64,000 nt of DNA, taken from positions 4,030,001-4,094,000 of the forward strand of contig OZ024754.1 of NCBI GenBank assembly GCA_964016885.1, given 5' to 3'. Positions within the stretch are counted from its first letter, which is position 1. Each line of letters starts with the position of its first letter. Shown one piece after another: positions 4,114 to 60,745 of this stretch. The position numbers and the translations under genes are program-made. The notes under the pieces were generated by a model. It made no database searches and was not told the DNA's origin. It worked only from the letters and a program-made list of their open reading frames with translations. The stretch is from Eledone cirrhosa. Lineage: Eukaryota.

Positions 4114-5044
4114 AGCTGATTGATACATTCCTTTGTAATATCACGCGGATTCTTCAGCAGTTAGTCTCGTTATATAATCATTATGTCATGGGTTCGATTC
4201 CTGAGCTGTGTTCTGTGTGGTGTTCTTGTTGCGTTTATTATATATATATATATATGTATGTATGCATATAAATTCTCATAGATTTAATATTGTATATGAG
4301 ATATCACAGGGATATATGTTCTCGATTGTGTGGAAATTCATTAAGGTGATGTATAGTTTTTGTTGGCTAAACTGGAAAATTTCTTGATGATGGATTTCAT
4401 TTCCATGTTTCGAAAACAATATCATCTAGGATAATGTCACTCTATATATTCTACAGGGACAGAAACCTAATGCCATTCCAACAGCTGAGAACTAAATACA
4501 ATCCCTTTTACATCAGTCAAACTTTTATCTATATCTTCTACACACTATCTCTGTAAAATATACATTAAGATCATCGTACAGGGAAGACGTACTTGTGGGT
4601 ATGTTATCCAAAAGTTACTTACTTTAAAAAATTGAGAAGAAGACCAGCTGTAGGTAAATTTCCTGAGTGTGGTTCGGACTCACAGTAAAGAGCAAGATTT
4701 ATTTAATCTTAAATGCATTTCTATATTAAATTCATGGCAAATCCTAAAGCCGTTTGGTAAAAAAATTTGACACTTAAAACCCGATGATATTGAAAATAAA
4801 GTCGTGGGTGTAAGCTAATTATATTAGAAAATTATGGAAAGAAGAAGAATAAAACGATGAAATCAATGATATTGAGTATACCTTACATGCTCGTGATTGG
4901 TGAAATACAAAAACATATACGTACATATATTTAACTGCAATATATATTTCATTAGATTCCCGAATGTAAATTCATGATTTTAAAACGTGTTTCTATAACC
5001 GAACCACTACACATGTAAAGGATACTCATACAAATATACCGTGT

Positions 5045-5085
<41 letters not shown>

Positions 5086-5224
5086 CACACTCATATACAT
5101 ACATATATACATACATACATACATACATACATACATACATACATACATTTCTTTTCTTTTACAACCTTGCCACCAGGAAGGTGGCCGGTCAAAAAAATAT
5201 ACTCGAAATTAAGAGAAAGAGAAA

Positions 5225-7216
5225 ACATACATACATACATACATGCATACATACATACATACATACATACATACATACACATACATACATACATACATAC
5301 ACATACATACATACATACATACATACATACATACATACATACATACATACATACATACACATACATACATACATACATACACATACATACATACATACAT
5401 ACATACATACATAGATACATACATACATACATACATACATACATACATACATACACATACATACATACATACATACACATACATACATACATACATACAT
5501 ACATACATACATACATACATACACATACATACATACATACATACACATACATACATACATACATACATACATACATACATACATACACATACATACATAC
5601 ATACATACACATACATACATACATACATACATACATACATACATACATACATACATACATACATACATACATACATACATAGATACATACATACATACAT
5701 ACATACATACATACATACATACATACATACATACATACATACATACATACATACATACATACATACATACACATACATACATACATACATACACACATAC
5801 ATACATACATACATACATACATACATACATACATACATACATACATACATACATACATACATACATACATACATACATACATACATACACACATACATAC
5901 ATACATACATACATACATACATACATACATACACATACATACATACATACATACACATACATACATACATACATACATACATACATAGATACATACATAC
6001 ATACATACACAGACATACATACATACATACATACATACATACATACATACATACATACATACATACATACATACATACATACATACATACATACACATAC
6101 ATACATACATACATACATACATACATACATACATACATACATACATACATACATACACATACATACATACATACATACACATACATACATACATACATAC
6201 ATACATACATACATACATACATACACATACATACATACATACATACACATACATACATACATACATACACATACATACATACATACATACATACATACAT
6301 ACATACATACACATACATACATACATACATACACATACATACATACATACATACACATACATACATACATACATACATACATACATACATACATACATAC
6401 ATACATACATACATACATACACATACATACATACATACATACACATACATACATACATACATACACATACATACATACATACATACATACATACATACAT
6501 ACATACACATACATACATACATACATACACATACATACATACATACATACATACATACATACATACATACACATACATACATACATACATACACATACAT
6601 ACATACATACATACACATACATACATACATACATACATACATACATACATACATACATACATACATACATAGATACATACATACATACACACATACATAC
6701 ATACATACATACATACATACATACATACATACACATACATACATACATACATACACATACATACATACATACATACACATACATACATACATACATACAT
6801 ACATACATACATACATACATACATACATACATACATACATACACATACATACATACATACATACACATACATACATACATACATACACATACATACATAC
6901 ATACATACATACATACATACATACATACACATACATACATACATACATACACATACATACATACATACATACATACATACATACATACATACACATACAT
7001 ACATACATACATACACATACATACATACATACATACACATACATACATACATACATACATACATACATACATACATACATACATACATACATAGATACAT
7101 ACATACATACACACATACATACATACATACATACATACATACATACATACATACATACATACATACATACATACACATACATACATACATAGATACATAC
7201 ATACATACATACATAC
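5225..7216. repeat. About 2-kb (TACA)n tetranucleotide array with CA and GATA variants
   Basis: Direct reading. Source of the 650-725 aa MYVC/HTYI ORFs. Confidence 0.97.
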
Positions 7217-7317
7217 AAAAAACTTCTGCACAGCAGCTCAATAGAGTTGACAAAGTATGAGGGATCAAAGAGGTAACATGATCATTATCATCAAACTACT
7301 CACATTACTCTTATGTC

Positions 7318-14912: not shown

Positions 14913-14993
<81 letters not shown>

Positions 14994-14997
<4 letters not shown>

Positions 14998-15186
14998 AAA
15001 AGAGTCAGGACCCCGACAGCTGAGCTGCGGCCGGTTCGACAGCTAGAACTGAAATCAGATCTGTCTGTCGAAACGGCCGTTTAGCCGTCGGAGTCCTGAC
15101 TCTATTCCTATTACCCACTCTACTACACAAAGTATCGAGTACTCTGGTGCGTGATGGTCCACCTGGTTCCTTACCACAGTTCCTTC

Positions 15187-15190
<4 letters not shown>
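14994..15190 (+). mobile_element. (TA)n-embedded palindromic element family P1, copy 1 (HHR 3' half, fold-back arm, ~80-bp tail); putative non-autonomous Penelope-like
   Basis: Imperfect palindrome 14994-15110. GAAA-CGGC-loop-GCCG-TC at 15070-15089. Tail shared with the 30153 and 52712 copies. (TA)n on both sides. Confidence 0.75.
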
Positions 15191-30152: not shown

Positions 30153-30154
<2 letters not shown>

Positions 30155-52662: not shown

Positions 52663-52711
<49 letters not shown>

Positions 52712-52713
<2 letters not shown>

Positions 52714-52912
52714 CGAAGGAAATGTGGTAAGGAACCAGGTGGACCATAACGCACCAAAGTACTCAATACTTGAGGTAGTAGAGTGGGTAATAGGAACCAG
52801 TAAGACCCCGACAGCTGAGCTCAAGCCGTTTCGACGGCTAATTCTGGACTGAGTCCAGAATTAGCCGTCGAAACGGCTTGAGCTCAGCTGTCGGGGTCTT
52901 ACTGGTTCCTAT
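52712..52912 (-). mobile_element. (TA)n-embedded palindromic family P1, copy 3 (perfect 61-bp arms)
   Basis: 52790-52850 is the exact reverse complement of 52852-52912, with a 1-nt spacer. Tail 52712-52789. Confidence 0.9.
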
Positions 52913-56830: not shown

Positions 56831-59590
56831 TTTGACTCCTACATTCTCTTTTGATTAAGCTCATGTTATGTTGATTAAGCTCATGTTATGTTGATTAACT
56901 ATGCAGCATATAAACTAGATTTAAACCATTAAGATTAGGACTCTGTTATTTAAGTCAGGGCAGCATTTTTTACATTATCACTGAACTGAGATTAATAGTT
57001 TGAAATACAATCTCAAACAAATGAAAAGCAATATTCTTTGCAACAGTATTTGCAGTCTGTTTCACAAGAAATAAATAAACAAGCACACAATAAATCGGAT
57101 GTTTGTGTTTTTGGTAATTATTTGAAAAGCAGGACAGTTACTAAAATATATCACAATGTGCATTTTAATAAGAACCAATCCGTTCCTTCCGGTAGTTGTC
57201 AAGCGATTAGTTTCTCCCATAACAAATGACAGGAAATGCACAAACAATCCCTAGTTAATTATTCTAATATAGATAGCTGCCGAATCGAATGTAAACTAAG
57301 AAAAATGATGACAGGTAATATGATAAATTGCACTACAGTGATATTTATTTTCCTTGTATTTATTTGTTTGCTTGTTTGGTTATTTTATTTGATTTCCATC
57401 GGAAAATAAATCCGAAACAAACCTAAAAAAAAACGATGTCTGCCTGTAAAAATAAACAATAAAGAATGCTACGAATTATAATAAACAAACAAATATAATG
57501 AAAATTTATCAACGTGGGGTTTGAATGTGAAATAAAAATATAGAATAAAAAAAAGTTTCGAAATTAGAAACAGAACAAAAATATAATGTAAGATTGCATC
57601 AAGGAAGAGAGTCTCCAAATACCGCTGTGCCTCATCTGGCTCTGAAATACCTTCTAAATTGAAAAGCGGAAAACTCGGTGGCGTCACATTTCATATTTGA
57701 TTGGAACAATGTGATATTTAAAGATATGTCTTAGCTGTAATAATAATAGATGAGAGTTCTAATTAATTCCTATGTTTAGAACAGAGTCCTCAACAACCGT
57801 CAAACCATCGACGTCTATCTAGTTTGACTCCTCCTCAAATTACGCACCAATCAGCAAGAGAGGCTCTATATGAACGCACGAAAGCCTGCTAGAAATAACA
57901 GACATATATATCCTCAAAGCCAACCTAACCTTCTTATCAAATGGAATGATGCGTCGTATATCTACATAAATGTCTTTTGTTTAGCTTCGGATCATCCCTT
58001 ATGAAATACTTCATAGGCTGGTTTAATCAGAGTTGATCTGACGGCTCTACAAAACCAACATAACCCACTATTGAAATCACAATAATTACTATATCTGTAG
58101 CTTTACAAATTCTATGTGTTTGAGCCAGCGAGTTAATCTCCACGAAGTCAATTGCATTGGCATATGTTACATGCAACTATTTAGTAACTCACACCGTACT
58201 CTCTAACACAATATATGATATATTGTATAATCTAGAGCTAGAAATTGTAAATAAATAAAAAAGAGAAGGATCATGGCCCAAAATATCTTTCCTCAACGTT
58301 CAGTGAAAGCATTGCTGATCTGTAGGTAAACACCAAACTAAATAACTAGGTATAGACGAATACAAGTATCTGTATCTAAGAGGATGCCTTCGGAATCATG
58401 ACGTCCGTTGATCTGTCCCAATGCGTATCATTGTAGACAGGTGTCATTTATCATGATCACATTTCAACAACAGACTTGGGAGTGAACCTGGGTACAATAA
58501 CACTTTGTGAAAGTCGTTCATATGCCGTAAGACTTTCATTCAAAAGTCCATACTTGCACACACGCTGTAAAAGAATTCCTAGATTTATCACCAATATAAA
58601 TCTATGATGTCTTATTGCGTTTTAGAAGTAAGTTGATTTCTCCGTATTCTTGTTCAGGTGTAATAGTGAAATAGCATTTATTGCAGGAAAGTAGTAATTG
58701 TATTATAAAAAAAAAACGTTATTAAAGAAATACAATTGGTAGACTGTGGATGGGTGGGGGATTACAGAATGAACAGAATATATATATATATATATTGTCC
58801 AAAGCTCCTACTCACGTATCAGCAATTACTTGGTAAGTGCTGCAAAAACATCTGGGTCCAATAGAGATAACTACTTATATGGGGGTCATTTTATAATGTT
58901 ATTTTTGTTGTTCTTGCTGTTGTTGTCGTTATTTTATTTAAGTTTGAGTAGAACGGCAAATCCGTACGATGACACATACTTTACGTATTCTAATAACATC
59001 TTTTACTAATTAAATAAATAAATAAAATGTCAGAATATAACACAAGTGAAATAAAAACAAAATTCCAGTGAAAATTTTCTAGAAAAGGTTTTGTTTTTTT
59101 CTGTATAATAATGGTCCCTTATTCGTAGTCACATGTGGAATGATTTTTCCATTTCTTTTTATTATTTTAAATAAATATCATTTGATTGAAAGAAACACAC
59201 ATACACAAGCGTACGTATACCTACACCAACCAAGAAGACAGATATTCATCCATATATACACATAAGCAAATCCGAAATCACACTCCTCTTCATCTATATA
59301 CTTACGCCTAACCGCCACAAATACATAGACACATACATGTATATAACTACAACAGCCGCAAAGACACATACACTCAAACATAGAGACAAGTACACAAAAT
59401 AATATTAATTATACACAGGCATTTTTTTATAGTTTAGATTATATCATAGATATACTGGAAGGAGAAAGACTATTTATTGTAGATAACTCACTTAAAAATA
59501 CATTCATTATCTCAGAACTGGTAAGAGTAAAAGCATCTCAAGCATTTGTCATAATTTCTGATGGTTTTTAAAGTAAAGGATTTGCTTTTC

Positions 59591-59640
59591 CTTATCCTTT
59601 CATTAGTTAATATTTCTATATTAACTAATGAAAGGATAAG
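59591..59640. repeat. Perfect 23-bp-arm hairpin with 4-nt loop
   Basis: CTTATCCTTTCATTAGTTAATAT-TTCT-ATATTAACTAATGAAAGGATAAG. Confidence 0.92.
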
Positions 59641-60745
59641 AAAAACCACGTTAAACGGTAATCAAGCGAATATATAACAAAATAATGTGTCAATATATAA
59701 CAAAATAATGTGTCATATTTTCTTTAACTGCTGTAAAATCATAATGGAATTTATATTAAACAGTGGAATTCTATCTATAATGATGGAAAAAAAAAACATT
59801 GAAAAAAAAAAAAATAATAATAATTCCGTTTTAAACAATTTGCACTAGACAAAATTGAAGAGAGCTTCTATGTGAGTTGTTTTATGTTTATTCTATTTCC
59901 GTTCAAATTAAATTGAGTCCACAACAAAACCAAATGAAAAGATATCAATAGATATTCGCAAACAACTTAGAGATTCATTTTAATATACATACTCGGAAAG
60001 CGCACACAGAGACACACACAAGCATTTAAGCAAACTTATGTTGTATATAGAGCAGGATTACAGATTCTGTTCATACTATATTTTACAAATAAAGATCTAG
60101 AACATAATGCATTGAACTGGCAGTGAATGTCGCTGAGCAACGTGTAAACTTATGGGAGATACAAAAACGTACATTTCCCTCCTTCAATATCTTAGAAAAA
60201 GCCAAAGGTTGTGACATTTTCGGTAGACATTGCACTCGGCAGATAGTATTAACAATAAAAATACCAGAAGATCACATAATCTTAATGTCCAATTTGACGG
60301 GTGACTCAATTCATTTCTTTGTTTTAACCGTAGAGTTTAATTTGTAGAATATCTTGCTAATATTTTTAGCAAAAGAGTTAACCACTTTTTATTGCCGGAA
60401 AATCATATTAATACCGGATAAATATTTATCATGCCAGCGTATGTAGACCGCCTATATATCATCGTTATGTTTGGTGTGTTTGTGTGTGTGTGAGTATGTG
60501 GAAGCTTGGTTGAATGTGAGTGTTTGTGTGTGTCGCAGTAAACTGGCAATTATATGGCAAGAGAGAGTAAAGTATAGATTTCATTTTTAAGTTGATATAT
60601 GTTCTATTGTTATCTGAGAAACATGTCTTGTTAGCAAAGACAACTAAACTGAATCCACTATGTACCAGTTCCTTCATCATATAATTTATATTATATATGT
60701 ATATATATATATGTATACAAATAAGTATAAATATTTATATATATA

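Follow-up and report, generated by a model that had tools for sequence, protein, structure and literature searches.

What kind of reaction leaves behind a short palindrome that holds half of a hammerhead ribozyme-like motif in its arms and a tail on only one of its ends? The question is raised by a 64,000-nucleotide stretch of the Eledone cirrhosa genome (contig OZ024754.1, positions 4,030,001 to 4,094,000, analyzed at full length and hereafter called the window), in which three such copies and one fragment are found. With a probability of roughly 0.7, these palindromes represent the shortest insertion products of an autonomous Penelope-like element (PLE) of the Hydra clade, and twin target-primed reverse transcription of a single RNA is likely to have made them. 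An earlier interpretation drawn from the letters alone (the sequence-only reading) placed the copies, the fragment, their (TA)n flanks and the shared tail of ~80 bp correctly and is partly supported: it was right about the origin, and wrong about autonomy and about priming on stem II.

The palindromes derive from a parent unit of 3,543 bp, whose intact open reading frame (ORF) of 717-719 aa encodes a reverse transcriptase (RT) and a GIY-YIG endonuclease. Parent coordinates count from 0, the first base 3' of the predicted hammerhead cut site. The features of the window are as follows.

14944..14995, no strand: target tract of (TA)n on the left side of copy 1, with similar tracts beside all copies
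14994..15190, plus strand: copy 1, inverted arm, direct arm and tail; belongs to an older subfamily with a GATCTAG-type 3' strand in stem II
15070..15095, plus strand: copy 1, 3' half of the hammerhead-like motif, with GAAA at 15070, GTC at 15087-15089 and the stem I 3' strand
15112..15190, plus strand: tail of copy 1, the initial ~80 nt of the next tandem unit (5' untranslated region, UTR, of the ORF)
30153..30346, minus strand: copy 2, palindrome and tail; 91% identical to the ORF-intact unit over 123 nt
30355..30394, plus strand: fragment, a tail-less arm of ~40 nt of the copy 1 subfamily, 85% identical to copy 1 over 40 nt
52710..52850, minus strand: copy 3, tail-side arm, parent -41 to +99; 141/141 identical to the ORF-intact unit
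52804..52832, minus strand: copy 3, GAAA, stem III, GTC triplet (52812-52810) and stem I 3' strand
52852..52912, plus strand: copy 3, inverted tail-less arm, parent -41 to +19 in the opposite direction; 61/61 identical

Copy 3 is a 123-bp palindrome, 99% self-complementary (z of -24 against 200 shuffles), whose arms are joined by a single extra base at 52851, and copies 1 and 2 are ~78% self-complementary across ~120 bp. Copy 1 is 84% identical to the ORF-intact unit over 126 nt and has a long relative elsewhere in the genome (L021); the fragment adjoins copy 2 across a short TA tract. All copies have (TA)n tracts on either side and the ~80-bp tail in common, which in copy 1 spans the gap between what we infer to be two RT start sites. 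The tail-side arms carry GAAA, stem III, GTC and GG(R)GTC, which make up the 3' half of a hammerhead-like motif of type I; CTGANGA, looked for on these arms, is absent, as the sequence-only reading had said, and the window copies lack both the hammerhead 5' core and the stem II 5' strand. The hairpin that it had placed ahead of GAAA holds up only in part: the stem II 3' strand is there, but the central hairpin is the palindrome itself and not stem II of the parent; the region where it turns falls, as that reading had it, within loop II of the parent. The window contains no part of the parent ORF, no target-site duplication is readable at the window copies, and a search of the window against Rfam gave microsatellite-type noise only among the 150 of 428 matches listed.

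Across the 3.0-Gb genome, whose repeats look octopus-like, the family was counted by exact sequence patterns, which give lower bounds, with reversed patterns as controls. The 21-base tail motif has at least 38,983 exact matches, the arm motif at least 79,393, and at least 17,303 short palindromes hold both arm motifs within 60 bp; given these counts and zero matches to the controls, the window copies are confirmed to lie far beyond chance. The same strand-switch joints occur in short-read contigs (one study, two samples, possibly including the source sample).

Several of the first 30 tail loci are non-palindromic and extend upstream into the end of the ORF. Four uninterrupted ORFs of 717-719 aa stand in a tandem array of five units (period 3,543 bp, units 99.8% alike) and at one other locus. 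In tandem units the tail reads on through the 5' UTR to the ATG at +190, and is therefore the start of the next unit. The structure model of the protein (predicted local confidence, pLDDT, 93) has TERT as its best fold match in the PDB (E 2.5e-8), and searches of Pfam and of PDB sequences with the ORF returned nothing significant; PLEs are the closest relatives of telomerase RT. The GIY-YIG residues Y, YIG, R, H, E and N, assigned by motif, profile and fold having given no match for this domain, are kept in 113-115 of 117 aligned relatives, and in the same 117 sequences the features of the Hydra clade recur: DKT, a CxCX5C linker, CxxC before E and CxH after N. CCHH is absent, as judged by eye. 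Relatives share 38-54% identity. Where the Hydra clade has RWK the parent has RWR, RW being invariant and K present in 84 of the 117. Loci of the family show the organization of PLEs, with tandem or inverted pseudo-long terminal repeats (pLTRs) and an optional tail, and the insertion preference for (TA)n is that of the Hydra clade. The parent is thus a PLE and, by these motifs, assessed against Craig et al. 2021 (PMC8557442), belongs to the Hydra clade. The origin in a PLE pLTR and the (TA)n target proposed earlier thus stand, together with the linked RT and GIY-YIG ORF; the proposed non-autonomous derivative does not, given that an ORF-intact unit matches copy 3 with 100% identity, that junctions are nearly all distinct (57 of 58 short copies) and that palindromes grade into multi-kb inverted elements. 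A non-autonomous source for the copy 3 subfamily was considered while only 49 long arms were known for it, and was dropped after a variant core gave 2,171 matches.

The parent itself carries a complete type I hammerhead-like motif, with a UUGANAA (U3-A8) core and a loop II of ~35 nt. Non-palindromic parents had been expected to read CTGANGA upstream of stem II. They exist, with the linked ORF, but read ACCCC-TTGANAA-G: among the first 100 listed cores, assigned by eye, 71 are U3/A8, 27 C3/A8, 2 U3/G8 and none C3/G8, and position 7 is occupied by all four bases. A canonical CTGANGA search for parents gave 44 matches, and the 30 read are by-products of junctions or chimeras; a search based on CUGANGA misses the parent because its core is UUGANAA. 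A pattern left open at positions 3 and 8 yielded 4,708 matches and a further subfamily another 2,171, which puts the hammerhead 5' half in roughly 9% of arms. The core elements U3-U-G-A-N-A8-A, G10.1-C11.1, GAAA and GUC are present with three stems, and 90% of cells are paired in register against 28-52% when the strands are slid. U3-A8 is a known natural hammerhead variant (PMC4209133; PMC3088659). Rfam returned no hammerhead match for the whole parent motif, and the minimum-free-energy fold gives a three-way junction in the young unit and not in two other copies. The C3/A8 subfamily argues that the hammerhead is under weak constraint, and self-cleavage is a prediction.

Each insertion is bounded on both sides by an element 3' end that lies at a pyrimidine-TAT site, one at +19 and the other at about +97, and the tail is the stretch between these two positions. 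Sorted by end type, short palindromes comprise 17,746 with one tail, 339 matches (~170 elements) with none and 1,208 (~604) apparently with two; at least 96% have a tail on exactly one end, against 50% under independent ends. When apparent two-tail loci were read, 9 of 10 had a single tail and a start displaced by two bases, and among eight no-tail loci two did have a tail, set off by a TA run, and one was not a palindrome.

Pattern parsing gave 62 short palindromes, of which 4 were dropped; in the remaining 58, a minority from motif-selected loci, the tail arm is longer in 20, the tail-less arm in 19, the two agree within 2 nt in 19, and the lengths are uncorrelated (rho 0.09). Of 36 long loci, 6 complex ones were excluded and 30 simple inverted elements were counted by eye: the tail arm is longer in 16 and the tail-less arm in 14, by up to ~2.6 kb, and junctions mostly show 1-7 nt of microhomology, are blunt or have a short fill. 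A tail-primed cDNA cannot give rise to a copy that exceeds it in length, and priming at +19 yields a cDNA with no tail, so two primings are needed. Arm ends collected from tail- and end-anchored loci (n=142) fall at -48..-33 in 105 cases, with the mode at -41, at -49..-90 in 3, beyond in 9 and shorter in 25, which defines a wall shared by the arms at -41 to -45, counted upstream from the predicted cut; short-read contig depth, a rough measure, drops ~20-fold across it. The first 100 young-subfamily cores comprised 29 inverted pairs (from coordinates, about half of them fetched), 8 tandem extras and 34 singles that were fetched and judged by eye: 24 without a partner arm, 4 with a long partner, 3 whose partner ends in the tail, 2 with a partner at -35/-41 and 1 at -65. 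Where a long arm has a partner arm the combination is long-long in 33 of 39, against 5-15% expected under independent stops, so that it is the template common to both arms that determines whether the wall is passed. The arms of long pairs are each other's nearest match in 13 of 17 among the arms sampled, and 13 share private substitutions.

It is reasonable to propose that the encoded protein, probably dimeric, nicks (TA)n on either strand, and that one nick would prime at +97 of an RNA and the opposite nick at +19 of that same RNA. The two cDNAs would extend to the RNA 5' end or drop off, and their 3' ends would be trimmed and end-joined head to head. In loop II a TATA-like motif starts at -70/-72 and is followed by an initiator (Inr)-like TTAGTCC or TCAGTCC with its A at -41, the spacing to -41 being 29-32 nt in every listed haplotype. 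At about even odds, then, the wall is the element's own transcript start inside loop II. Stubs would be copies of the mRNA 5' end, lacking the ribozyme 5' half from the outset, and long copies would derive from multi-unit or circular RNA. If true, the first ribozyme of an mRNA started in loop II would be incomplete and linear mRNA would give mainly 200-bp stubs. A wider synthesis, which we offer tentatively and with less confidence than the promoter itself, would make inverted repeats and one-sided tail the outcome of one obligatory reaction, in which a dimeric RT-endonuclease uses two fixed sites on a single RNA, the ribozyme-loop promoter supplies palindromic stubs, and multimeric or circular RNA made by the ribozyme supplies full-length copies.

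Several observations weigh against this account. No excess of cap-derived G follows -41 (G 5 against C 7 overall, G 1 against C 8 in the young subfamily), the expected cap base beginning only the loose-end consensus from two runs of one sample, and RNA runs gave a single 140-nt contig, in one run. Partner arms are missing for those 24 of the 34 unpaired long arms, and shared arm variants could stem from later conversion between arms. The case for the ribozyme is weakened by the 27 C3/A8 mismatches, by a fold z of 0.4 with no z-score significant, and by covariation not above shuffles (13 rows; three both-side changes, all in stem II). The centers of L043, L050 and L058 hold foreign sequence duplicated as a palindrome, and some short-loop junctions recur, as fold-back priming would give. 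Finally, no long arm stops at the -41 equivalent one unit upstream, and five elements pass it; with no stops and five passes there, long copies need another RNA class.

Twin priming need not involve a promoter: the wall could be a processed RNA end, or a block by protein or structure in loop II, and this variant, counted within the twin-priming core of our preferred explanation, is possible though doubtful. It accords with the missing cap-G, with the spread of ends from -41 to -47 and with the absence of stops one unit upstream. A stochastic block, however, predicts mainly long-short pairs, of which 2 of 39 were seen, and stops at the upstream ribozyme, where all five elements run through; these passes also speak against a simple block and suggest multi-unit or circular RNA for long copies, and the TATA-like/Inr-like spacing suits -41. 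A splice acceptor was also considered as the cause of the wall and rejected: an acceptor-like site exists, but the arms retain its AG and upstream bases and have no common upstream exon. Self-priming, proposed for PLEs by Arkhipova et al. 2013 (PMC3846280), departs further from two primings, in that a tail-primed cDNA snaps back, copies itself and is resolved by the endonuclease at the +19 TAT. It would account for the one-tail rule, the shared variants, the duplicated foreign centers and the recurring short-loop junctions, yet it predicts a tail arm at least as long as its partner, which fails in 19/58 short and 14/30 long copies, and many junctions are blunt or filled. We regard it as unlikely in general; fold-back fits a minority of loci, those with duplicated foreign centers or recurring junctions. 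The particular version in the sequence-only reading, self-priming on stem II, fails, as just 1 of 58 copies reaches the stem II 5' strand and the tail-less arm exceeds its partner as frequently as it falls short of it.

Palindromes are prone to deletion, and stubs could be what is left of long inverted insertions whose centers were later lost through cruciform instability; that long inverted elements ending at the same sites exist fits this, but deletion gives no sharp wall with a near-empty interval at -49..-90, copy 3 is indistinguishable from young units, and older long inverted copies still persist, all of which makes the idea quite improbable. Still less credible is a non-autonomous hairpin master, like a retrozyme or a short interspersed element (SINE), copied as a unit: stubs do outnumber long arms ~10 to 1 and a few junction types recur, and against this stand the near-universal diversity of junctions and the long ORF-bearing relatives of every subfamily checked, that of copy 3 included with its 2,171 cores. 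Inverted ends within (TA)n could recall a TA-targeting miniature inverted-repeat transposable element (MITE) or Helitron-type DNA element, a notion with next to no probability left, since the tail lies outside one inverted end, centers vary and the sequence is continuous with, and identical to, an RT and GIY-YIG unit. The copies do not show the set of features that marks a MITE, namely terminal inverted repeats at both termini, a constant interior and a transposase partner; terminal inverted repeats or target-site duplications of MITE type were among the contrary evidence that the sequence-only reading had named.

Long poly(T)/poly(A) runs occur at junctions just upstream of -44 in L022, L110, L168 and L026, as from RT slippage or tailing. 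Tail-side arms of L009, L012, L020, L140 and L148 start at or within 1-2 bases of the predicted ribozyme cut, as might result from cleavage of the RNA or from the second primer acting as a block. L122 resembles L043, L050 and L058 in having foreign or other-family sequence, palindromic, at its center or 5' of the arm. The centers of L031, L039, L051 and L056 are head-to-head chimeras of the parent family and another repeat, which carries a canonical CTGAAGA hammerhead as well as a tail of its own; their ends are uncoupled (tail/tail, none/none twice, mixed), and they can be explained by two RNAs joined or by neighbors fused via deletion. The CTGAAGA repeat makes a palindrome of its own in L084. 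At L269-L271 (G000:C1:91472500-91495000) the five head-to-tail 3,543-bp units are followed by a ~3.6-kb array of a 55-bp repeat and after it by an inverted arm, a layout that fits rolling-circle or multimer copying. Near another copy (L109:1-4500) lie reading frames that are presumably of the Helitron-like Rep-helicase type. Within the window, positions 31348-31564 hold an unrelated 123-bp palindrome, 90% self-complementary, between (TA)n tracts, with a one-sided tail of ~95 bp and GAAA in the arm; given this like architecture, it is likely a stub of a different PLE family. Other repeats of the window are an AT-rich 66-bp palindrome at 59583-59648 lacking adjoining TA tracts, seven copies of a 48-bp tandem repeat at 865-1210 and a long array of tetranucleotide type at 5009-7300.

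The origin of tandem and inverted PLE ends with a one-sided tail has been named an open question (PMC8557442), and twin priming would explain these puzzling inverted ends. The family offers a test bed of at least 17,000 independent junctions with natural intact ORFs in near-identical tandem units, and with so many junctions and intact ORFs twin priming versus self-priming becomes decidable. It also illustrates that an abundant PLE ribozyme can escape CUGANGA-based searches and that palindromic PLE stubs can be mis-filed as MITEs. It is a matter of speculation that thousands of perfect 40-60-bp hairpins feed double-stranded RNA pathways.

In LINE-1 twin priming the second target strand primes a second cDNA, and the inversion junction shows microhomology. 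There the two cDNAs copy non-overlapping RNA, whereas here both arms represent one region with two fixed starts. As for the promoter, a TATA plus Inr-like pair has been noted in a rotifer pLTR (PMC3846280), and the internal promoter of Drosophila Penelope is TATA-less (PMC2377424). Non-LTR retrozymes (bioRxiv 10.64898/2026.07.22.740005) are likewise short PLE-derived repeats with type I hammerhead sequence, but they form head-to-tail tandems with whole ribozymes and not head-to-head stubs with half of one. Hammerheads with U3-A8 in Schistosoma PLEs, and other natural variants, share the core covariation and are reported active in vitro, and pairs of motifs on opposite strands 100-700 bp apart have also been noted (PMC4209133; PMC3088659); these motifs are minimal and have no helix III, while that of the parent has a stem III of 4-5 bp and the long loop II.

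With the Hydra clade, as described in PMC8557442, the parent shares a single ORF with C-terminal GIY-YIG, DKT, the CxCX5C linker, CxxC and CxH around E and N, a 3' hammerhead motif, the (TA)n target and inverted 5'-truncated copies. It differs in unit length (3.54 kb against <3 kb for most members), in RWR for RWK, in the U3-A8 core with long loop II where all Hydra hammerheads of File S2 have CTGA, in a tail of 80 bp against 30-40 bp for PLEs generally, and in its tens of thousands of stubs. Hydra-1_Obim of Octopus bimaculoides belongs to the same clade and, compared by eye, has related-looking protein passages; it is 2,507 bp long, with a canonical CTGAAGAG core, other stems and 3' end, and is annotated 'no pLTR' (PMC8557442). 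A 2026 octopus repeat annotation names recently active Penelope families, in passages that give no detail (PMC13282606). Searches of open-access literature gave no account of the parent family, of the one-tail rule or of PLE twin priming, although the supplements of PMC13282606 or Repbase/Dfam may hold the family. A close parallel in mechanism is the Poseidon element PAc of Anolis (Frangieh et al. 2024, PMC11167929), a predicted dimer that extends both nicked strands and begins at two internal positions between which the tail lies; an AT-rich target is common to both, and the parent would share the tail between two internal RT starts as well as nicking and extension of both strands. PAc belongs to another clade and its start site is not homologous to the target, whereas here both ends lie at TAT, and strict one-tail pairing with head-to-head joining is not described for it in the accessible part of that paper. 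The parent is a new Hydra-clade family, and the two-start tail and two-strand extension proposed for it have their published precedent in PAc (PMC11167929).
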